A DNA stretch of 64,000 nt from Bryobacterales bacterium (GCA_963738375.1 CAVTWL010000010.1:212921-276920), one strand, 5' to 3'; positions 19,117 to 30,864 are shown, counted from the first letter of the stretch. Numbers and translations: made by a program. The notes: generated by a model from the letters alone, not told the origin.

Positions 19117-21953
19117 ATGAAATTTCTACTTTGTTTGGCGTCGTTCCTTGTCGCCCTTCCACCGCTTTCAGCCCAAACAGCAACACTTCGCGGGCAGGTG
19201 ATGGATGAATCCGCCGCCGTCGTGCCCGGCGCGGCCGTTACCTTGCACGGCCCGTCCGGCATCGCCAAAGCCGCTACCTCCGCCGCCGACGGATCTTATT
19301 CGTTCCTGGGCCTGCCTTACGGCGCCTACACCGTGCGCGCAACCGCGCCCGACCTGGTGCAATCCGCCCCCGTCAAAATTGTTTTGCAATCCGCCGCGCA
19401 GTCGCTCAACCTCACCATGAAGGTTGCCTCGGTGACCCAACAGGTGACCGTGCAGGACACCGGCGGCCCCAGCGTCTCCACCGATCCCTCCAGTAACTCA
19501 AGCGCCACGGTTCTGCGTGGCGAAGATCTGCAAGCCCTCTCCGATGACCCCGACGATCTCCAATCCGACCTGCAAGCCCTCGCCGGACCCTCCGCCGGCC
19601 CGGAAGGCGGCGAAATCTACATCGACGGCTTCAGCGGCGGACAGCTTCCCGCCAAGGATTCCATCCGCGAAGTCCGCATTAACCAGAATCCGTTTTCGCC
19701 CGAGTATTCCAAGCTCGGCTACGGCCGCATCGAAATCCTGACCAAGCCCGGCACCGATTCCCTGCATGGCCAGGGCTTCTTCAATTTCGGCGACGACATC
19801 TTCAACTCGCGCAATCCTTTCGCCCAGCAGAAGGCGCCCTTTGAGCTCCAGGAATACGGCGGCTCGCTCAGCGGCCCGCTCAGCAAGCGCGCTTCTTTCT
19901 TTCTCGATTTCGAACGCCGCGCCATCGACAACGGTTCCGTCATCGACGCCGTCACGCTCGATCCCGCGACTTACGGCATCAGTCCTTACACCGGCGTCCT
20001 GCTCTCCCCCCAGCGCCGCGTGCGCATCAGCCCGCGCCTCGATTACCAGTTGAGCCAGAACAATACTCTGATCGTGCGCTACGCCTTCACCCGCAACAGC
20101 GTGAACGATCAGGGCATCGGCAGCTTCGATCTTCCCTCGCGCGGATATTCCACGCTCGATCAATACCACTCCGTGCAAATGACGGAGACCGCCGTGCTCG
20201 GCCCCACCACCGTCAACGAAACGCGCTTTCAGTTCTATCGCGAAAACGAAAATCAGTTGGCCAACAGCTTGGCCCCGGCCCTGCTCGTGCTTGGGTCGTT
20301 CAACAGCGGCGGCGCGCAATCCGGCCTAGCCTACAATACCGATAACCATTACGAACTGCAGAACAATACCTCAATCGTGAAAGGCACGCACACCTGGAAA
20401 TTCGGCGTGCGCGCGCGCGGCGAATCGTTGGCCAGCACTTCACCCCAGAACTTCGGCGGCACGTTTACTTTCGCCGGCGGCGTGGCCCCCGAACTGGACG
20501 CCCAGAATCAGGAAATCCTCGATGCCTCGGGCCAGCCCGTGTTGGCGCCCATCACCTCCATCCAGCAATATCAGCGCACCGTGCTCGGCTTGCCCGGCGG
20601 CGTTCCCACCCAGTTCAGCATCGCCGCCGGCAATCCGTATCTCGCCCTCGACCAGGTGGACGCCGGCCTCTACGCCGGCGACGATTGGCGCGTCCGCCCC
20701 AACGTGACCCTCAGCCTCGGCGCGCGCTACGAAATGCAGACCAACATCCACGATCGCGGCGATTTGGCTCCGCGCTTCGGCTTCGCCTGGGCCCCCGGGT
20801 CGAACAAAATCGATCTGCATCCCAAGTTCGTCATCCGCGGCGGATTCGGCATGTTCTATTCCCGCTTCGATATCTCCAACATCGAAACCGCCGAGCGCTA
20901 CAACGGCCTCGTCCAGCAGGATTACATCGTCAGCAACCCCGCCTTCTACCCCGCCATTCCCACGATTGCCCAGTTACTGGCCATGCCGGGCATTCAATCC
21001 ACCCAGACCATCCAGGAACTCAGTTCGCTCCTTGCGCTCGCCGTATATCATGCAGTCGGCCATCACCGTCGAGCGGCAGCTTCGCCCGCAATAGCACCGT
21101 CTCGGTCACTTATACCAATTCCCACGGGCTGCACATGCTGCGTTCGGAGGAACTCAACGCCCCCGGTCCCACTTACATCATGGAGTCCTCGGGCCTCTAC
21201 AATCAGAACCAGCTCATCACCAACGTGAACTCCAAGCTGAACGCGAATGTCTCGCTGTTCGGCTACTACACGCTGAACCGCGCCATGAGCAATACCGACG
21301 GGCTGGGTACCTTCCCCGGCAATCCGGCGACCATGGCCGGCGAGTATGGACCGGCCGCCACCGACATCCGCCATCGCGCCTTCATCGGCGGCTCCATCAA
21401 TACCAAGTGGAACCTGCGGCTCAGCCCCTTCATCGTGGTCCAGTCCGGCGCCCCGTATAACATCACCGTCGGCGAGGATCTTTACGGTGACACGCTCTTT
21501 AACGCGCGTCCCGGCATCGCCACCGATCTGAGTAAGTCCGGGCTGATCGACACGAAGTACGGCTGGCTCGACCCCAACCCCTCGCCCGGCGAACAAATCC
21601 TCCCCCGCAATTACGGCCGCGGCCCGGGCGCCATCAGCGTCAACGCGCGCCTCGGCAAGACCTGGGGCTTCGGACCCGAGCGCCAGGCCGCCAGCGGCGC
21701 ATCCCCCGTCGCCGCCGGACACAATGGCGGCTATCACAGCATCTTCTCGGATGTCTCCACCACGCGCCGTTATAATCTGACGGCTTCCCTCTCCGCGCGC
21801 AACCTGCTGAACCACGTGAACGACGGCCCCATCATCGGCCAGATCACCTCGCCCTTGTTCGGCGAAGCCAACTCCGTAGCCGGCGGCTATGGCGCGTTCG
21901 CGGAGACGGCCAACAACAGGCGGCTGGAACTGCAAATGCGATTTACGTTTTAA
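19117..21953 (+). pseudogene. carboxypeptidase-regulatory-domain / TonB-dependent-receptor-like outer-membrane protein; about 3 frame changes within 21.02-21.09 kb
   Basis: It has a signal peptide, 'LRGQVMDESAAVVPGAAVTLHG..ADGSYSFLGLPYGAYTV' and plug-like 'VLRGEDLQALSDDPDDL..GGEIYIDGFSGG'. A long beta-barrel ends '..NRRLELQMRFTF*'. 'YIMQSAITVERQL' lies in a third frame between track ORFs 19117..21228 and 20685..21953. Confidence 0.8.
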
Positions 21954-21974
21954 AGACTGGGCAGAGTGGACAGG

Positions 21975-22148
21975 CTATCGGTGTTCGAGGCGCTCTTCCA
22001 TGTGTTTCAGCCGCGCGTCCAGCACATCCTCCACGCGCCGGAGCTCAGCGCGCCAGACATCCCGTAGCAGCGTGACCATGAGGGTAAGCATGGCAGCATT
22101 AAACAAAATGGGCACGCCGATCGCAAGATACAGTTGGGTGTCGGTCAT
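21975..22148 (-). CDS. 57-aa small membrane protein (hypothetical)
   Basis: 'MTDTQLYLAIGVPILFNAAMLTLMVTLLRDVWRAELRRVEDVLDARLKHMEERLEHR*': one TM helix plus an amphipathic tail. Below the track length cutoff and read by eye. Confidence 0.35.
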   Translation of the reverse strand: MTDTQLYLAIGVPILFNAAMLTLMVTLLRDVWRAELRRVEDVLDARLKHMEERLEHR

Positions 22149-22271
22149 GGCTGCTCGGCTTCAGTATAGTTAAGCGTTGACACTTGTGCACCCCTGAGGG
22201 CAACTTTGAGGCCCCTTCCCGCGAGCCGAGTCTCCCAGCTCTTTCGGCAAAACCCTGCTAGCCTTAGCGAG

Positions 22272-24354
22272 ATGACCACCCCAAGGCGGTACGCCCACAG
22301 TCTGAAGGATGCGCCGCTCGAACGCTGGCACGATTTACTTGAACACTTGGAGGGAACCGCTGCGCGCTGCGAAGCATTCGCTTCCTCGTTTGCGCCCGGA
22401 TGGGGTCGCTTGGCCGGCCTATGGCACGATGCCGGCAAATACCGGGACGCCTTCCAAAAACACATAGGGGTGGACTCCGACGGGCATTGCGACGGACGCG
22501 TAGATCACTCCAGCGTTGGGGCTTTGATCGCCAGGCAGTGCGCGGCGGATCCGTTGGCGTTCCTAATCGCCGGACATCACGGTGGGCTCAAGGACAGCGA
22601 GAGTCTTCGGAGGCGCTTAGATAGCGCCAGGGAATTGTTGGCCGAAGCGAAGCGCGACGGCTTGCCCCAATCGATGGAGACCGAAACGCTTCCACCGAGG
22701 CCCTCTTGGATGGATCGGATAAAAGTAAACTCGCCTTTTGGATGCGATTCTTATTTTCCGCGTTGGTCGACGCAGATTTCTTGGATACTGAGCGCTTCTA
22801 CAGAGGCGTCGAGCGGGATTTCGGTGGACGCCCTGCCCTTGACGCTTTACGTAACCGACTCGACCGCCTTCATTGACCGGCTTGCGGCGCAGAAAGCCGA
22901 GTCAGCCGTAAATGCGATGCGCGCGCGGGTCTTGAAGGACTGCCAGGCTGCAGCCAACCTGCCACCCGGGGCATTTACTGTTACTGTTCCCACGGGCGGC
23001 GGCAAGACACTGGCAGCGCTCTCTTTTGCGCTGCGCCATTCGGTGAAGCACGGTCTTCGCCGCGTGATCGTAGTCATACCATATACCAGCATCATCGAGC
23101 AGACAGCGCAGGTCTACCGTGACGCGCTTGGCACCGAGGCGATTATCGAACACCACAGCGCCGTGGACCCGTACAAGGAGAACAGCAGTAACCGAATTGC
23201 CTGTGAGAACTGGGACGCCCCGGTGGTGGTGACAACCAGCGTGCAGTTCTTCGAGAGCCTGTATGCGAACCGTACGTCCAGATGCCGCAAACTGCATCGA
23301 ATTGCTGACAGCGTTGTGCTCTTTGACGAGGTGCAGACGTTTCCGCCCAGACTCTTGAAGCCTATTGAGTCGGCCCTCGAGCAACTCATTTCGTACTATG
23401 GAACCACGGCCGTATCTTGCACGGCCACCCAGCCCGTACTGAGAGTGCCATCACCACGCGAGATCGTTCGAGATAAGCGCAGCGAATTCGAGCAGTTGCC
23501 AACAGGTGCGAGATCTTGCTTCCTGAATCGCGCGAGCCGGTGACGTGGGAACGGCTCGCGGAGGACTTGCGCCGGCACGAATCCGTCCTCGCGATAGTCC
23601 ACAAACGGGCCGACGCGCAAGAACTCGCCGGGCTGGTGGGCCCTGGATGCTCTCACCTCGGCAAGGATGTGCGCTGCGCATCGCTCCGCAGTGCTCGACG
23701 AGGTTAGGGCAAGATTGAGAGATGGCAGTCCTTGCCGCTTGGTGGCCACACAACTCGTGGAGGCTGGCGTCGACTTGGATTTCCCCATTGTCTACCGGGC
23801 GATGGCAGGTGCCGACTCTCTCGCACAGGCAGCCGGCCGCTGCAATCGCGAGGGCCGGTTCGAGAGCGGGCGATTGCACGTGTTCATTGCTCCAACCTGA
23901 AGCCTCCGCAGGACTTGCGGGCCGCGAAGAAGACGGCGGCAGTGTCTGGCGAATCAGGGATTTCTCGACCTAAAGAGTCCCGACCTGTTTCCAGACTATT
24001 TCAGAAGGCTATATGCGGTGATGCCGGACGACCCAGGCGTGCTGGCGGCCAAAAATGAGCTCTGCTTCGAGAGGTCCGCAGAGCTATTCAAAATGATCGA
24101 CGAGGACGGTACCTTTGCCGTCGTTGCGCCGTTTGGCGCGGCGGCGGAGCGCGTGGCCGACATTAGAGGGAATATCACCCGGCTCTGGCCTACGTCGGCT
24201 GCAACCCTTCCTGGTGAACCTCTACCGACAAGAAGTCGACGAACTCCTCTCCTCCGGAGCACTCGAGCAACTCGACGAAAGACTCTATTGCACGGTGACA
24301 GGCTTTGAGCGAACATACGATCAGTGGTTCGGGTTCGCCTGGAAGGGGAGTTGA
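22272..24354 (+). pseudogene. cas3: type I-C Cas3 (HD nuclease + DEAH helicase); at least 7 frame changes
   Basis: HD motifs are 'LAGLWHDAGKY' and 'IAGHHGGL'; 'LAFWMRFLFSALVDADFLDTERFY' is in a second frame. Helicase motifs are 'VPTGGGKTLAAL', 'VVLFDEVQ' and '[36 protein letters not shown]'. The C-terminal domain '..DLFPDYFRRLYAV..' ends at 24354. Fragments alternate among the three frames. Confidence 0.85.
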
Positions 24355-24430
24355 GCGGCAGAGCCAGAGAGCCTGATAGCCTAACAACGTGCCCGTGGAT
24401 TGAAACTCTAAGGAATTCCTTAGAAAAGCC

Positions 24431-24459
24431 TTGACTGCCTCCTTGTCTGGGAGTATTAT
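24431..24459 (+). promoter_or_regulatory. sigma70-like promoter upstream of cas5c
   Basis: TTGACT (24431-24436), 17 nt, TATTAT (24454-24459). It is followed by the palindrome GTGAGCTAGCTCAC (24467-24480), AAGGAGG and TTG start 24494. Confidence 0.55.
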
Positions 24460-24493
24460 CCAAGTTGTGAGCTAGCTCACCAAGGAGGCTTTC

Positions 24494-25138
24494 TTGGCGT
24501 CGTATTTAGTCCGTATTCGTGGCGAATACGCCTGTTTCACCAGGCCGGAGTTCAAGACTGAACGGGTTTCTTATGAATTAATCACGCCGTCCGCCGCCCG
24601 CGGCGTTTTGGAGGCTGTCTTGTGGAAGCCAGCGATCCGCTGGCACATCCGCCGGATACTTCTTCTGGCACGACCGCGATACATTCAGTTCAAGCGAAAT
24701 GAAGTTACGAGTCGCGCCTCCGTCGCCACGGCACATAAGGCGATGCGGTCGGCACAGCCAGAAGACTATTTCGCGGACGAGGACCGCGCCCAGCGCAACA
24801 CGCTGGCGCTGCGCGATGTTGACTACGCGGTGGAGGCGGAATTCCGCTTCACGGAACGCCGAGGTCCGGACGACAACGCCAACAAGTTCGATGAAATGTT
24901 CCGCCGGCGTCTCGAAAAGGGGCAATTCCACATGCAACCGTACCTTGGGTGCCGCGAATTCCCGGCTTGTGTCGAGATCTACGACGGATCGCCCCTGCCC
25001 CTCCACGACGAAACGCGCGGCCTTGGAATGATGTTGCATGACCTGCGCTATGGCCCCGCCGGTAACAAACCGGTGTTTTTCGATGCCCGCCTCGATCGAG
25101 GAATCCTCCAAATACCCGAATGGGAGGATCGCCCATGA
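24494..25138 (+). CDS. cas5c: Cas5c (Cas5d) pre-crRNA-processing subunit, intact
   Basis: 214 aa with a TTG start. 'YLVRIRGEYACFTRPEFKTERVSYELITPSAARGVLEAVLWKPAIRW' and 'HMQPYLGCREFPA' are typical Cas5d motifs. Confidence 0.9.
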   Translation: MASYLVRIRGEYACFTRPEFKTERVSYELITPSAARGVLEAVLWKPAIRWHIRRILLLARPRYIQFKRNEVTSRASVATAHKAMRSAQPEDYFADEDRAQRNTLALRDVDYAVEAEFRFTERRGPDDNANKFDEMFRRRLEKGQFHMQPYLGCREFPACVEIYDGSPLPLHDETRGLGMMLHDLRYGPAGNKPVFFDARLDRGILQIPEWEDRP

Positions 25139-26809
25139 TTCTGCAAAGCCTGCGCGATCTGGCTGATCGCGAGCGACTCCTCGCAAATCCGGATTATGAA
25201 CCAAAAGCCGTAGCCTGGATCATCGACGTCGATGACGCTGGCAAGTTTCTCGGCTTAGTCCCGACCGGCGAGGGAAAGAGGCTCAACATTCCTCGGCGAT
25301 CGGGGCGAACCTCGGCCGCCGTTCACCGATTTCATAGGACAATCGAGTACGTCCTCGGTGTCTGCCGGCAGGACCAACTATCGAAGCCGAGACCACCCGG
25401 CGAGCTCGCGAAACGCAATGGGCTGTTTCGATCCGCTGTAGCCGCTGCCCTCGAGGACACCGGACTCCCCGGACTGCAAGCCGTCGTCTCCTTTCTTGAT
25501 GACAGCGCAGAGCGCATCCGCTGCGCCTCGGAGGCGGACGCCGGCGGGTACAAGAATAACGACTTGTTCGCGTTTCGTCACAGCGGTGTCCTCGTTCATG
25601 ATCTCCCGCAGGTCCAGGCGTACTTCTCTGCGTGGCGTGCGAATTCGACCCAACCGGGGACACAGTGCCTCGTGTGCGGCCGGAAACGCGTTCCCGTGGA
25701 TAAGCATCCCGGCATCAGGGTCCCAGGCGGGTCTACCAGCGGCGTCGCCCTGGTCAGCTTCAACTCGACGCATTTGAGTCCTACGGACTCTCCCGGAACG
25801 AGAATGCGCCCGTTTGCAGAGAGTGCGCCGACAGCTACACCACTGCCCTCAATCGCTGCCTCGACACCAAGTACGTTGACCAGAGCGGAAGCGTTTTGTC
25901 CCGCCGTTCAGTCCGGCTGTGTCCAGACACCGCAGCGGTTTACTGGGCCGAACAGGATGCGTCTGCAGTCGATTTGTTTAGCAGCTTGTTGGACGCACCT
26001 ACCGAAGAGGCGGTTCGACGCCTTTTTCTGGCTCCCTCTGAGGGGCAAGAGCCCGCGGGGGTCAACGACCCCCGCTTCTATTGCCTGCTGATTTCGGGCG
26101 GACAGGGCCGCGCAGCGCTCCGTGGCCTTCATACGCAGACGCTCCACGCCGCCGAGGAAAATATCCGCGAATATTTCCGCATAGTGAAAATCGGCCAGGA
26201 GACCCCATTGCCCCTCTGGATGCTCCTGAGATCGCTCGCCCTGCAACGCGAGTCCAAGAATCTCTCGCCCAGCCTGGCGAGCGATTTCTTCCTCGCTATC
26301 CTCTTCGGGCGGCCGTTCCCGCGGGCAGTCTTGGCAGCCGCCGCGGCTCGCAGTCGCGCCGAGCACAAAGTCACCCGCGAACGCGCTGCAATCTTGCGCG
26401 CCTGTCTGATGCACTACAAAATGGAGGTTTGGATGAGTTTAGACAAAGACGATATGGAACGGGATATCGGCTAGGACGCCTGCTAGCCGTCCTCGAACGG
26501 CTACAGAGCGACGCGCAGAGAAGTCTCAACAAAAGCGTAGTCGATCGATTTTACGGCGCTGCAAGTACGCGGCCGGGCACGGTTTTCCCGTCCCTGATTC
26601 GCTTGGCTCAGCACCACCTGGCCAAGGTCGCCTCCCCGGCCTACCATCAGATCAATCTGAGCGAAGTGCTCAACGGAATCGCCGCGTTCCCACCCACTTT
26701 GCGACTCGACGAGCAGGGCCTTTTTGCTCTAGGATATTACCACCAACGCCAAGAATTTTACCGTCGCAAAGAACCCGAGTCCCAAACACAGACAGGAGAA
26801 CAAGAATGA
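25135..26809 (+). pseudogene. cas8c: Cas8c (Csd1) large subunit; at least 2 frame changes (about 25772 and about 26450)
   Basis: ATG 25135 overlaps the cas5c stop. It contains 'MILQSLRDLADRERLL..PDYEPKAVAWIIDVD', 'CLVCGRKRVPVDKHPGIRVPGGSTSGVALVSFNS' and, shifted, 'DAFESYGLSRNENAPVCRECADSYTTALNRCL'. The C-terminus '[49 protein letters not shown]' is in a third frame. Confidence 0.85.
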
Positions 26810-27758
26810 ACGAGTCACCAGTCCTCGACACCCGCTGCGAGATCGTCTTGCTGTTCGATGTTATTCACGGCAATCCCAACGGCGATCCCGACGCCGGCAA
26901 CGCGCCACGCGTCGATCCGGAAACGGGATACGGCATCGTCACAGATGTTTGATGAAGCGCAAGGTGCGCAACTTTGTCGCGCTCACGAAGAGCTACCAAC
27001 CTCCGTACGATATATACGTGAAAGAGCGGGGGATTCTGGCGAATCAGCAACGGCGTGCCTATGAGGCGATTGGCGCACAGCCAGACACCTCTGGCCGCGC
27101 TAACGAGCAGGCCCGCGCTTGGATGTGCCAGACGTTCTTCGACGTACGCAGTTTGGTGCGGTCATGACAACCGGCAAGACCGGCGAGGAGGATCCCGCCA
27201 CCGGCGCCCCCAAAGGCAAAGGCGCTAAGGAAGAGCCAGAAGCTCTGGAACTGCGGACAGGTGCGGGGCCCGGTGCAAGTCGGGTTCGCTCGGTCGCAGG
27301 CGCCGATCCTTTCGATCGAACACACAATCACGCGCGTCGCTCTTACTAACCCCGGCGATACGGATCGTGCCGCCGCCGAGGGCAGCGACGGCGAAGAGAA
27401 GGCCGGCAGCGGGCAGATGGGGCGTAAACACGGCATCCCTTATGCGTTGTACCGCGCGCACGGCTTTGTCTCGCCGTTCCTGGAACGACACCGGATTCTC
27501 AAAAGCCGACTTCGACGTCTTACTGAAATCGCTCGAACATCTTTTCGAGCACGATAGATCGGCTGCGAGAGGCGAAATGGAGGTGCGCGGGCTGTTTCTC
27601 TTTGAACACGATAACGCCTCGGAAACGCGCCGGCCACAAGCTCTTCGACTCAATTCGGATCGAAGGCCCGGCCACTCCGCGCTCTTTCAGCGAATATCAA
27701 CTTAGCCTACCACCGAGTCCGAATTGCCGCAGGCGTAAAGCTGCGGCGGATCGTGTGA
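26806..27758 (+). pseudogene. cas7c: Cas7c (Csd2) backbone subunit; at least 5 frame changes
   Basis: Motifs present are '[38 protein letters not shown]', 'KRKVRNFV', 'FFDVR..FGAVMTTG', 'NCGQVRGPVQVGFARS', 'GRKHGIPYALYRAHGFVSPFL', 'SAARGEMEVRGLFLFEHD' and the end '..GVKLRRIV*'. They are spread over all three frames. Confidence 0.85.
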
Positions 27759-28230
27759 CGTCAGGCTTTCTCGAAGACGACCTGCTGCCGCTCTCCGGCC
27801 TCCAACACCTCGCCTTCTGCGAGCGGCAGTGGGCCCTCATTCATATCGAGCAGTCCTGGGCCGAAAACCGTCTCACCGCCCAAGGCCGCGTCCTCCACAA
27901 CCGCGCCCACGACGGCCCCCCCGAGTCCCGACCCGGCCTCCGCATCGCCCGCGGACTCCGCCTCCGCTCCCTCCGCCTCGGCCTCTCCGGCGAGGCCGAT
28001 GTCGTCGAGTTCACCCCGCACCGGACGGCATCGCCCTCCCCGGCGAAACCGGCCTCGGCGCCCCTTCCCCGTCGAGTACAAACGCGGCCGCCCCAAAGCC
28101 GGCCGCTGCGACGAGGTCCAACTGTGCGCCCAAGCCCTCTGCCTGGAGAGATGTTCGCCCGCCCAATCCCCTCCGGCGCGCTCTTCTACTGGGAGACAAT
28201 TGGCATCGCCGGGTGGAGCAGGTGGGAGCA
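27755..28230 (+). pseudogene. cas4: Cas4 (RecB-like nuclease), frameshifted and 3'-truncated
   Basis: GTG 27755 overlaps the cas7c stop. It contains 'LSGLQHLAFCERQWALIHIEQSWAENRLTAQGRVLH', 'GEADVVEF' and 'PFPVEYKRGRPKAGRCDEVQLCAQALCLE' (second frame), then 'MFARPIPSGALFY'. Homology ends near 28225. The C-terminal segment that should carry three Fe-S cysteines is absent. Confidence 0.75.
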
Positions 28231-28261
28231 AAGCAGTCGTACGATCCGCAAGGACCGATGA

Positions 28262-28449
28262 TTATATGACGCGCGGACCCCAAGCGAGCAAGAAAACGCC
28301 GGTGGGTTCGCGGCACCCGTACCGCACTGAATTCATTGAGCCGCTGTGCCCTGAAGCCGCAATTCACAGTCGAATCTGGCAGGATCGGGCCACGGTGCGC
28401 GAAAATGGCTTGCAGGACGCTTGCCCTTCAATTACTTAGGAGGCAGGCG
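28262..28449 (+). promoter_or_regulatory. putative CRISPR leader
   Basis: Non-coding stretch directly upstream of the conserved first repeat. The array decays at the far end, which sets the orientation. No specific promoter motif was identified. Confidence 0.4.
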
Positions 28450-30204
28450 GTCGCCGCCCGCGCGGGCGGCGTGGATTGAAACATGCCCATCCGGAGCCCG
28501 AAAGCCGCGCAAGTCCGTCGCCGCCCGCGCGGGCGGCGTGGATTGAAACAGATCGAGGTAGTGAGTGCGATCCGCTCCCCCAGCGTCGCCGCCCGCGCGG
28601 GCGGCGTGGATTGAAACTGTGGATCAATCGGCACAAGCGAATACTGTGGTCGTCGCCGCCCGCGCGGGCGGCGTGGATTGAAACTCCGTGCCGCACGGAC
28701 CAAGCTAGGCGGCATCCGCCGTCGCCGCCCGCGCGGGCGGCGTGGATTGAAACGAGCGTGGGCGCGCGCTGGAACGCGTTCGCGCCTCGTCGCCGCCCGC
28801 GCGGGCGGCGTGGATTGAAACTCTCATTTTGGCTGGAGGCATCTAATCGGGGTGCGTCGCCGCCCGCGCGGGCGGCGTGGATTGAAACACGGCGCCGACC
28901 GCGTCATCGTGCCGGCTGCAGGCGTCGCCGCCCGCGCGGGCGGCGTGGATTGAAACTACGTACTCGATCGGCTACCGATGGGCTGGCTCAGGTCGCCGCC
29001 CGCGCGGGCGGCGTGGATTGAAACCCTTGGATTATGGTATGAATGGGAACGATGCTCGAGTCGCCGCCCGCGCGGGCGGCGTGGATTGAAACATCGCGGA
29101 CAGATCGAGGATGATACAGCAGGCGCTGTCGCCGCCCGCGCGGGCGGCGTGGATTGAAACCCACTGCGACGCGGACGGTAAGACCGTGTGCGCCCGTCGC
29201 CGCCCGCGCGGGCGGCGTGGATTGAAACGTCAACAGGCCTGAAACGTATGTTGCTGGCCAGCGTCGCCGCCCGCGCGGGCGGCGTGGATTGAAACTTGGG
29301 GCAAGGTCGAAACCCTGAAGAAGTGGAAGGCGTCGCCGCCCGCGCGGGCGGCGTGGATTGAAACACGGTGCCGACGAAGTGCCGTAAGTGTACTACGTCG
29401 CCGCCCGCGCGGGCGGCGTGGATTGAAACAGGATGTCCTTGCCTTTCATTGGTGCTCCTTTGGGGTCGCCGCCCGCGCGGGCGGCGTGGATTGAAACGCG
29501 TGGCTTCCATTATATGGATGCCAATGGTATGGTCGCCGCCCGCGCGGGCGGCGTGGATTGAAACGCAGTGAAGCCGGTACCCGTGCCGCCGGTGGTTGGG
29601 TCGCCGCCCGCGCGGGCGGCGTGGATTGAAACCAATACGGAATCCGTTGAGGTTGACGGCGACAAGGTCGCCGCCCGCGCGGGCGGCGTGGATTGAAACA
29701 CAGCTTATGCACGAGTTTAGAGGCTAGTTGTTCCAGTCGCCGCCCGCGCGGGCGGCGTGGATTGAAACACCGGTACGCGCAACATGATCTGGTGACCGGC
29801 GTGTCGCCGCCCGCGCGGGCGGCGTGGATTGAAACGGCTCGAGTCGAGTTTACCGCCTCGAATCCCATGCCGTCGCCGCCCGCGCGGGCGGCGTGGATTG
29901 AAACACTTACGAGCTCGGCCACTAAGATGCGCGCGCTTCGTCGCCGCCCGCGCGGGCGGCGTAGGATTGAAACGCAAGCGTGCAAGCGGCGGCGGTCGCC
30001 ACGGCTGTCGCCGCCCGCGCGGGCGGCGTGGATTGAAACTCAAGGCCGTCGTCAACAAGCTTGCCCAACGGCGCGGGCGGCGTGGATTGAAACAACGGGG
30101 CGGTATAGTTAGGGCAAGGGCGGCATGGATTGAAACACCGCGCTACCTCCAGCGCTCCGCCGAATAGCGGCGTCGCCGCCCGTGCGGGCCGTGTGCCATG
30201 CACA
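28450..30204 (+). CRISPR. type I-C CRISPR array: 24 full repeats (33 nt) plus 3 degenerate terminal repeats, spacers 32-36 nt
   Basis: The repeat GTCGCCGCCCGCGCGGGCGGCGTGGATTGAAAC starts at 28450, 28517, 28585 ... 30007. It has a GCCGCCC/GGGCGGC stem and the ..GGATTGAAAC end typical of I-C. The repeat at 29940 has a 1-nt insertion (GTAGGATTG). Truncated or degenerate copies end at 30093, 30136 and 30204. Confidence 0.97.
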
Positions 30205-30339
30205 GCCCCGCTCCTCCTTCACCCCTCCAACCTGGTGACAACTTTCCACAGGCGCTTTTTTCCTTACCCATCAATCGCTTCCCGCCTCTATGGCCGCCTT
30301 TCCCGCTGCCGTGCTGCCATGGTATCGAGGATACCTTTT

Positions 30340-30864
30340 ATGTCAGACCTTCCCCTCTCGGCCACGCAACAGACCGTCCTGGCCATGATCGCGTCCGGAT
30401 CCAACGCCCGCCAGGCCGCGGCCACCGCTGGCGTCCACCGCAACACCATCGCAAATTGGCTTTGTTTGTCCGAATTCCGGCAGGCCTTCACGCTCGCCCA
30501 ATATGAAAAGGCTATCTTCCTCCGCGAGCAGGCTCAATCCATTGCTGCCGACGCTTACGCCGCCATCCGGGCCCTTATCGCCGATCCCGGCGTACCGGCG
30601 GGCGTCCGCCTGAAAGCAGCACTGGCCATTATCGATCGCGCCTCCGCCCCGCTGCCCGAAGTTCCCGAAATCGTGCCCAATAATGCACAATCGGAAGCCG
30701 CACCGCAAGAAGGCGAGCCCCTCGCCGTCGTCCCGATCCGCAACGTTGGCCCCAAAATCGGATGCAACGATACTTGTCACTGCGGGAGTGGCTTGAAATT
30801 CAAGCGTTGTTGCCTCGGCAAGGCCGTCCCGCCCCCGGCGTCGGCGCTGTCCGCAGCCGGATAG
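30340..30864 (+). CDS. HTH-containing hypothetical protein with C-terminal SEC-C metal-binding motif
   Basis: ATG 30340. 'SNARQAAATAGVHRNTIANWL' is HTH-like. The C-terminal 'CHCGSGLKFKRCC' is a SEC-C motif. Confidence 0.65.
   Translation: MSDLPLSATQQTVLAMIASGSNARQAAATAGVHRNTIANWLCLSEFRQAFTLAQYEKAIFLREQAQSIAADAYAAIRALIADPGVPAGVRLKAALAIIDRASAPLPEVPEIVPNNAQSEAAPQEGEPLAVVPIRNVGPKIGCNDTCHCGSGLKFKRCCLGKAVPPPASALSAAG

Follow-up and report, generated by a model that had tools for sequence, protein, structure and literature searches.

The window, as we call the whole stretch of DNA analyzed here, comprises 64,000 nucleotides (nt) from a Bryobacterales bacterium, and coordinates are counted from its first letter. 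Judged from its sequence, it holds a degraded type I-C CRISPR-Cas locus: the I-C gene set is recognizable except for cas1 and is accompanied by a repeat array (I-C repeat end ATTGAAAC), and cas5c is the sole intact gene. The element studied lies between cas3 and cas5c, where an earlier note on this DNA had pointed out a copy of the end of the array repeat. The 13 nt CGTGGATTGAAAC at 24394-24406 (+ strand) were indeed identical at 13 of 13 positions to the final 13 nt of the 33-nt array repeat GTCGCCGCCCGCGCGGGCGGCGTGGATTGAAAC, and a search of the whole window returned no other exact copy outside the array. The naive expectation of 0.002 given earlier for such an exact match is arithmetically right; when up to one mismatch is allowed, 0.12 matches are expected per shuffled window. 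The fragment, a 5′-truncated solitary repeat termed PsiR1, contains the whole 11-nt 5′ handle of the CRISPR RNA (crRNA), TGGATTGAAAC (24396-24406), again as claimed. The intergenic location also stood, with one correction: the TGA at 24352 is a premature stop, and the ancestral cas3 stop codon is TAA at 24382-24384, from which 9 nt lead to the 13-mer. From the handle to the cas5c start there are 87 nt.

Directly 3′ of the handle lies a perfect 18-bp palindrome, TCTAAGGAATTCCTTAGA (24407-24424), followed by AAA, GCC and the predicted sigma-70 promoter of the cas5c-cas8c-cas7 operon (24431-24459, + strand). Its −35 box TTGACT (24431-24436) and −10 box TATTAT (24454-24459) are separated by 17 nt and together give 10 of 12 matches; no other strong sigma-70-like site was seen on the + strand within 3 kb, and the same arrangement is present in relatives. 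Further downstream on this strand follow a 14-bp palindrome, GTGAGCTAGCTCAC (24467-24480), which from sequence and predicted fold forms an apical sub-hairpin, a Shine-Dalgarno (SD) sequence AAGGAGG read from the sequence at 24482-24488, and cas5c with a TTG start (24494-25138; TIGR01876, E=3e-43), which is 80% identical in one frame to the Cas5c of the relative L163 (L-numbers denote loci encoding Cas5c relatives). The two palindromes, the promoter boxes, AAGGAGG and the TTG start had been listed before and were confirmed. An Rfam scan of 21500-30500 (E≤1) gave no match in the intergenic region, only CRISPR-DR9 in the array and chance miRNA matches. As a terminator of cas3 the 18-bp palindrome was ruled out, its AU-rich hairpin being followed by A's and not by U's.

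Since the sequence behind the handle, here called the pseudo-spacer, is palindromic, it recurs on the bottom strand of the same DNA when that strand is read from the far end. This match to the opposite strand extends over 18 nt and is flanked by TTT, the bottom-strand reading of the top-strand AAA at 24425-24427, which occupies the place of a protospacer-adjacent motif (PAM) 3 nt from the predicted −35 box. The canonical type I-C PAM is TTC. In L. pneumophila and X. albilineans, TTT has been described as ranking second among I-C PAMs (PMC5602111; bioRxiv 10.1101/2021.10.18.464778). On the other side of the palindrome the flank is the repeat end (AAC), a 'self' non-PAM, and a repeat-end flank, GAAAC, has served as the 'self' non-PAM reference (bioRxiv 10.1101/2021.10.18.464778). 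The self site is the only one within the 64 kb that combines TTY with a seed match, and neither this search nor one for handle copies returned another target in the window; two handle look-alikes with one mismatch, at 25425 and 47699, both lie inside coding sequence. The PAM-flanked target that the earlier note had proposed to look for was thus found, but it is the palindrome itself, which the note had missed. The 18-bp palindrome is best read from these features as pseudo-spacer on the + strand and, on the − strand, as the Cascade target of that same adjacent guide.

Loci encoding Cas5c relatives were collected from genomes, metagenomes and an exact protein look-up. The compared loci are metagenome-assembled genomes (MAGs) and metagenome contigs, some of them phylogenetically related, and statistics are therefore also given per guide family. 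Among genomes, the best Cas5c matches were Terriglobia/Bryobacterales MAGs with identities of at most 79%. Thirteen distinct loci carried the palindromic element (the window, L004, L005, L008, L010, L097, L105, L112, L113, L136, L162, L163 and L181), with Cas5c proteins 67-100% identical to that of the window. In their common layout a GGATTGAAAC-like handle is joined without a gap to a palindrome of 14-20 bp, behind which come GAA or AAA and, after a further 1-3 nt, a −35 box resembling TTGACA. The bottom-strand PAM is TTC (top GAA) at eight loci and TTT (top AAA) at the other five; the AAA flank is that of the window's own subclade. Intact systems are present among these relatives: L008 has a complete cas3-cas5c-cas8c-cas7-cas4-cas1-cas2 operon, and L163 shares the window's repeat and has an operon that is intact except for a split cas1 call.

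The palindromes themselves differ in sequence (TCTAAGGAATTCCTTAGA, TCTAAATCATATGATTTAGA, ATAGAAAATATATTTTCTAT, AACAAATAATTATTTGTT, CACAAATAGCTATTTGTG, AAGCTAATATATTAGCTT and TACATATATATGTA). Covariation was tested on eight 18-nt examples with 500 shuffles and with slid registers as control. All nine base pairs showed changes on both sides and none showed one-sided changes; 97% of the cells were paired, a value reached by 0 of 500 shuffles, whereas slid registers were about 40% paired. Not one of the 72 palindrome cells held a G-U pair. Symmetric double changes in differing sequences point to selection on self-complementarity and not on one particular sequence. A palindromic guide that is its own target would be expected to stay perfect, because any single change creates two mismatches, at positions i and L+1−i. 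The check for conservation in related I-C loci, also proposed earlier, was in this way passed. Two degenerate extra copies, L032 and L180, stand outside the 13; at L180 (3940-4060) the handle, TGGAAAGAAAT, is degenerate and the palindrome, of 16 nt, is shifted in register. As the array repeat of L180 ends in ...GGGTTGAAAT, the last base of the solitary handle tracks the local repeat variant. Viruses have been predicted to carry mimics directed against I-C CreR/CreA, and IMG/VR was scanned for handle-N18-20-GAA-N-TTGAC. The 14 matches, several of which recur almost unchanged over unrelated viral contigs, included no palindrome and were taken as chance.

Non-palindromic relatives follow the same logic. 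A looped variant was found at L083 (2253-2384), L089 (1147-1264), L096 (2065-2193), L102 (2648-2785) and L106 (2453-2595) and, more weakly, at L092. Here the handle is followed by a 17-nt guide, a loop of 10-20 nt, an inverted copy of the guide, GAA and TTGACA. A predicted intrinsic terminator begins at guide position 18, the inverted target lies just past it, abutting GAA and the −35 box, and differences between guide and target are confined to positions 6, 12 and 18. In other I-C lineages the sequence after a solitary handle matches a TTC-flanked site 50-700 nt away. For the non-palindromic I-C elements, which come from several phyla, the best 14-nt match of each guide was taken at any position and with any flank. 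In this best-match search 21 of 25 mismatches within guide positions 1-14 fell at position 6 or 12 (P=1e-14), and with one locus per guide family the count was 15 of 18 (P=1e-10). The flank, which the search ignored, was TTC in eight of 11 guide families (P=6e-13). In the type I Cascade duplex, as seen in I-E and I-C structures, every sixth base is flipped out and unread. Cascade binding thus predicts a periodic tolerance that fits the 6/12 pattern, one that follows neither from a hairpin nor from a protein operator.

Two further arrangements were seen. In L012 (5220-5893) and also in L118, L119 and L149, a gene for an extracytoplasmic function (ECF)-type sigma factor (Pfam Sigma70_r2/r4_2) lies between cas3 and cas5c; these loci include a Planctomycetales MAG (L012). 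A solitary handle GGGTTGAAAC directly follows the sigma gene, and the sequence behind the handle matches, over 10-16 nt with mismatches at 6 and 12, a TTC/TTT-flanked site about 50 nt upstream of that gene. The arrangement may mean that cas expression is driven by a sigma factor under repression by Cascade. Thiobacillus-type I-C loci (L056 5747, L057 5748, L074 5726 and L078 5724, minus strand) have a solitary handle about 250 nt upstream of cas5c that points away from it, with a TTC-flanked partial target about 57 nt upstream on the same strand, a third I-C geometry.

The handle of the window has lost the repeat stem-loop that would normally precede it. The earlier statement that this half of the repeat was not kept was confirmed by alignment and by folding, which returned no repeat-like stem-loop 5′ of the window handle (z=+0.6). 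In L181 (about 2270-2390) a complete 33-nt repeat precedes the palindrome TCTAAATATATATTTAGA, AAA and TTGACT. This full repeat at the same place identifies the 13-mer of the window as a truncated repeat. In the alignment the window, L162 and L163 had lost 29-32 nt including the stem-loop, while many relatives have a hairpin that ends 1-2 nt before UGGAUUGAAAC, in some cases with G-U pairs. The palindromes of the window, L162 and L163 nevertheless still differ symmetrically, so that the function may not need the stem-loop, and the element poses the question of how a handle matures without a repeat hairpin.

Downstream of the pseudo-spacer the + strand is predicted to form a long hairpin (24437-24489), in which an anti-SD arm GCCTCCTTG (24437-24445) pairs with CAAGGAGGC (24481-24489), the SD sequence. 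The anti-SD arm falls within the spacer between the two promoter boxes, the loop contains the −10 box, and TTTCTT follows the hairpin. Folding of 24396-24500 gave −40.6 kcal/mol (z=−4.4). An equivalent anti-SD/SD hairpin of differing sequence, with −12 to −30 kcal/mol, was present in all 13 palindromic and five looped loci folded, and a U-rich stretch follows it in about half of the loci. The 14-bp palindrome has covarying counterparts in L081 (GTGAGGTACCTCAC), L082 (GTGGG-ATCA-CCCAC) and L136 (GTGGG-GCAG-CCCAC), and on the modelled fold it is probably the 5′ hairpin of the cas5c mRNA initiated at the promoter. According to the predicted fold, the long hairpin is complete only in transcripts begun upstream of the promoter. 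It begins 30-35 nt past the handle (30 in the window), where the stem-loop of a next repeat would be. That no second repeat-like element follows 30-40 nt downstream had been counted by the earlier note against a CreR-like element. No second repeat-like element (PsiR2) was found downstream of the window's pseudo-spacer, and the window, like every relative examined, had a single repeat-derived element in place of two repeats flanking one spacer. The weight of this objection is reduced by the covarying hairpin at 24437-24489 in that very place, and by the terminator of the non-palindromic relatives.

The remainder of the locus is in decay. Pseudogenes were called by tblastn with the Cas proteins of the two intact relatives L008 and L163 and by listing of stop codons. 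On the + strand, cas3 (22206-24384, also recognized by NCBIfam Cas3 HD/helicase matches) has in-frame stops at 23541 (TGA), 23595 (TAG) and 23898 (TGA), a frameshift near 24184 and the premature TGA at 24352. Two frameshifts, near 25770 and 26455, split cas8c (25120-26809, +) over three frames, and cas7 (26806-27755, +) is disrupted near 26950 by a frameshift and at 27165 and 27703 by in-frame stops. The adaptation module is reduced to a remnant (27767-28269, +): a fusion near 28180 joins codons 2-147 of cas4 to the final 30 codons of cas2, and cas1 is deleted. From the cas5c start to the array start there are 3.96 kb, compared with about 5.5 kb in relatives. Sequencing error was considered an unlikely source of the pseudogenes, given five in-frame stops, a 1.5-kb deletion and the intactness of other long open reading frames (ORFs); the frameshifts are calls at the level of the assembly. 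The array (28450-30202, +) has 25 full 33-nt repeats, identical except for one with a 1-nt insertion, and the uniformity of the repeats suggests that the decay is recent. Its trailer end is eroded: the repeat with the insertion, CGTAGGATTGAAAC (29940-29973), is followed by two 5′-truncated repeats with short spacers (about 30070-30093 and 30119-30136) and, at 30171-30202, by a terminal repeat that is degenerate. Upstream of cas3, two long overlapping + strand ORFs of 703 and 422 amino acids (19117-21953) could be one frameshifted gene for a large surface protein; the 703-residue ORF shows a weak match, falling far short of the cut-off (E=3e-7), to an anammox S-layer glycoprotein family. The I-C system of this genome is thus most probably dead and the element a fossil: from the state of its genes, the circuit very likely no longer works in this organism, and the element would be a recently orphaned relic.

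The comparative sequence data establish the anatomy of the element, its conservation and covariation, its PAM and mismatch statistics and the pseudogenization around it. We attribute these features, with a probability of roughly 0.7, to a type I-C guide RNA gene of the CreR class that has its own DNA as target and through which Cascade would repress its own operon. The CreR-like crRNA mimic suggested earlier is in this respect supported, both by conservation with compensatory change and by the PAM-flanked partial target.

Transcription, processing, Cascade binding, repression and the avoidance of Cas3 cleavage are steps that we infer from the sequence. In intact relatives, transcription leaving cas3 would cross the solitary repeat. 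Cas5c would keep the 11-nt handle UGGAUUGAAAC, giving a small RNA with the expected 5′ end (U)GGAUUGAAAC followed by the palindrome, and Cas7 and Cas8c would assemble over the palindromic pseudo-spacer of 18-21 nt. Being palindromic, the spacer RNA could pair with either strand of its own gene, top or bottom. Its 'self' orientation is flanked by AAC, which is no PAM, and the opposite one by TTC or TTT, which would leave a single binding orientation. Cascade would then read TTC/TTT on the bottom strand and open an R-loop of 18-21 bp on the top strand, whose small length, judging from CreR, CreA and the I-F1 mini-array as analogues, would presumably not license Cas3. With its PAM-proximal end 1-3 nt from the −35 hexamer, the complex would occlude the cas5c-cas8c-cas7 promoter and block read-through from cas3, and its titration by crRNAs or its inhibition would bring derepression. 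As a second layer, the hairpin that sets the anti-SD arm against the SD sequence would act only in transcripts initiated upstream. It would supply the small RNA with a 3′ hairpin, often with a U-tract, and would keep read-through RNA from translating cas5c.

Several observations weigh against this attribution. Functional cognate effector genes were found in L008 and L163 and not in the window genome, where the frameshifts in cas8c and cas7 mean that Cascade cannot be made. The stem-loop thought to be needed for Cas5c cleavage is absent from the window, no sigma-70-like site was seen upstream of the window's handle, and the candidate −10-like motifs in that position in relatives were too inconsistent for a promoter to be claimed. 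The RNA of the window would consequently have to arise by read-through of the cas3 pseudogene and to mature without that stem-loop. In the window the PAM is TTT, not TTC, and lies 3 nt instead of 1 nt from the −35 box. The avoidance of Cas3 recruitment by an 18-21 bp duplex in I-C is an assumption by analogy. The element is missing from about two thirds of close relatives and is therefore dispensable. Finally, two of the 18-nt palindromes, those of L097 (1599-1616) and L162 (TCTAAACAATTATTTAGA), are imperfect, with a seed mismatch at position 7. In both, the single mismatched pair corresponds to guide positions 7 and 12, of which 12 is among the unread positions; this may be chance.

Part of the same evidence would also suit the binding of a protein. 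If the palindrome were the operator of a dimeric repressor or activator at the cas5c promoter and the repeat fragment an unrelated remnant, perfect inverted symmetry directly upstream of the −35 box would be expected, and the RAA before that box could be promoter context; both points add to those against a self-targeting guide. The changes are moreover strictly Watson-Crick without G-U intermediates, as for symmetry at the DNA level, and the palindrome was kept while the stem-loop was lost. A conserved regulator, however, should conserve its half-sites, which are not conserved among close relatives, and in the window the locus has no linked regulator gene. An operator leaves unexplained that the palindrome without exception abuts the handle at its start and a TTC/TTT flank at its end, that the looped and remote-target relatives keep handle and PAM logic without a palindrome, and that mismatches cluster at positions 6 and 12. 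We consider this explanation improbable.

Slightly less probable still is that the palindrome acts as an RNA or DNA hairpin only, at the 3′ end of the cas3 mRNA, for stability or as a processing site, without a guide role. The element begins 9 nt past the cas3 stop codon, and a 7-bp RNA hairpin is predicted besides the long second hairpin (z=−4.4). Yet the hairpin is AU-rich and without a U-tract, and the absence of G-U pairs from 72 cells is at odds with the repeat-derived upstream hairpins of relatives, which do use them. A hairpin alone would predict neither that the palindrome has the handle at one end and TTC/TTT at the opposite end, nor the 6/12 mismatch pattern of the looped relatives.

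It is very unlikely that the element is functionless debris of a decayed mini-array or of an ectopic repeat insertion and was never regulatory. The repeat is truncated and the whole locus of the window is decaying, and standalone repeat-like sequences are common in CRISPR-cas loci, which also counts for this explanation. The alternative of a decayed mini-array remnant in the earlier note is borne out in so far as the stem-loop is deleted and the Cascade genes are pseudogenes; the covariation speaks against debris that was never regulatory. The architecture recurs in 13 palindromic and five to six looped loci with compensatory change, a fixed PAM and a fixed distance to the −35 box, and neutral remnants would not keep perfect palindromes of differing sequence. 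An antitoxin of the CreA type, repressing the toxin of a CreTA-like addiction module as the earlier note had entertained, would involve the same general type of crRNA-like RNA but is hardly credible, since the 87-nt interval from handle to cas5c is filled by promoter, hairpin and SD sequence and leaves no space for a toxin or any extra small gene, and the only PAM-flanked target in the window lies at the cas5c promoter.

Returning to the self-targeting guide, we propose a broader joint reading that is tentative and to which we give somewhat less than even odds. A module of about 35 bp would be guide RNA gene and its own operator at once, with the orientation set solely by PAM versus repeat end. 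Symmetric evolution after loss of the stem-loop would imply a route to the handle that is independent of a Cas5c hairpin, and the coupled hairpin would terminate or silence upstream transcripts while the promoter-initiated mRNA stays translatable. Together with the variants of other phyla that target an ECF sigma gene or have a divergent orientation, I-C would carry diverse and largely undescribed self-regulatory guides. In any case, type I-C, for which autoregulation of the CreR type has had no more than passing mention although it is established in I-B, I-E, I-F1 and V-A, gains a sequence-level signature of Cascade-guided self-regulation, made up of PAM, seed and mismatches at 6 and 12, which can be searched for in sequence data without experiments. 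A palindrome that is its own target would account for a perfect palindrome beside a repeat fragment, and with guide and operator in one DNA it would be the most compact design conceivable. I-C Cascade is already in use as a small genome-engineering tool, and the element could offer a compact natural template for self-limiting CRISPR interference circuits with this complex. No description of a palindromic pseudo-spacer as its own target was found in the literature searched; as that search is incomplete, novelty is unproven.

Several known systems resemble the element in part. In the DevTRS system of Myxococcus xanthus dev (type I), an older precedent, Cas8, Cas7 and Cas5 repress their own operon promoter, presumably as a Cascade-like subcomplex (as summarized in PMC6061681); a guide RNA or target site is not defined for it, and the likeness is one by analogy only. 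The tracr-L of type II-A, a natural single guide acting on the cas9 promoter (as summarized in PMC10120712), likewise derives from a repeat and with a guide of 11 bp makes the effector a repressor of its own promoter, although it belongs to class 2 and has a different RNA architecture and a guide that is not palindromic. In haloarchaeal I-B CreTA the crRNA-like antitoxin RNA CreA, whose complementarity is partial, directs Cascade to a promoter, as proposed here; in contrast to this pair with its toxin CreT, no toxin gene is present at our element and the target would be the cas promoter itself. The two-repeat mini-arrays of Shmakov et al. share the position between cas3 and the first Cascade gene, a downstream target beside a canonical PAM in the Cascade promoter region, and limited complementarity, which is thought to prevent self-cleavage. 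They differ in having two repeats, they were described for I-E, I-F1, I-D and I-B, and no palindromic spacers were described among them. As the pipeline required a repeat match of at least 16 bp, the 13-nt remnant of the window falls below its threshold.

The closest likeness is to CreR, for which autorepression has been demonstrated in I-B, I-E and V-A, with targets that adjoin the −35 boxes of effector promoters, while creA-like elements of I-C are mentioned in a supplementary figure only (Liu et al., bioRxiv 10.1101/2023.03.10.532045). Like CreR, the element combines a degenerate repeat that keeps the handle with a pseudo-spacer and a partial, PAM-flanked match adjoining an effector −35 box, it occupies a cas intergenic site without coupling to a toxin, and it would be expected to bring about an autorepression that senses free Cascade. 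PsiR2 was called 'difficult to predict' in V-A CreR (bioRxiv 10.1101/2023.03.10.532045) and is thus not strictly defining. In contrast to the demonstrated examples, the element belongs to subtype I-C with its Cas5c processing and is known here from sequence, and it has a single repeat-derived element, 5′-truncated in the window, with a promoter-spacer/SD hairpin in the place of PsiR2. Above all, guide and target are two separate sites in CreR, whereas here one palindromic DNA would serve as both, on its opposite strands.

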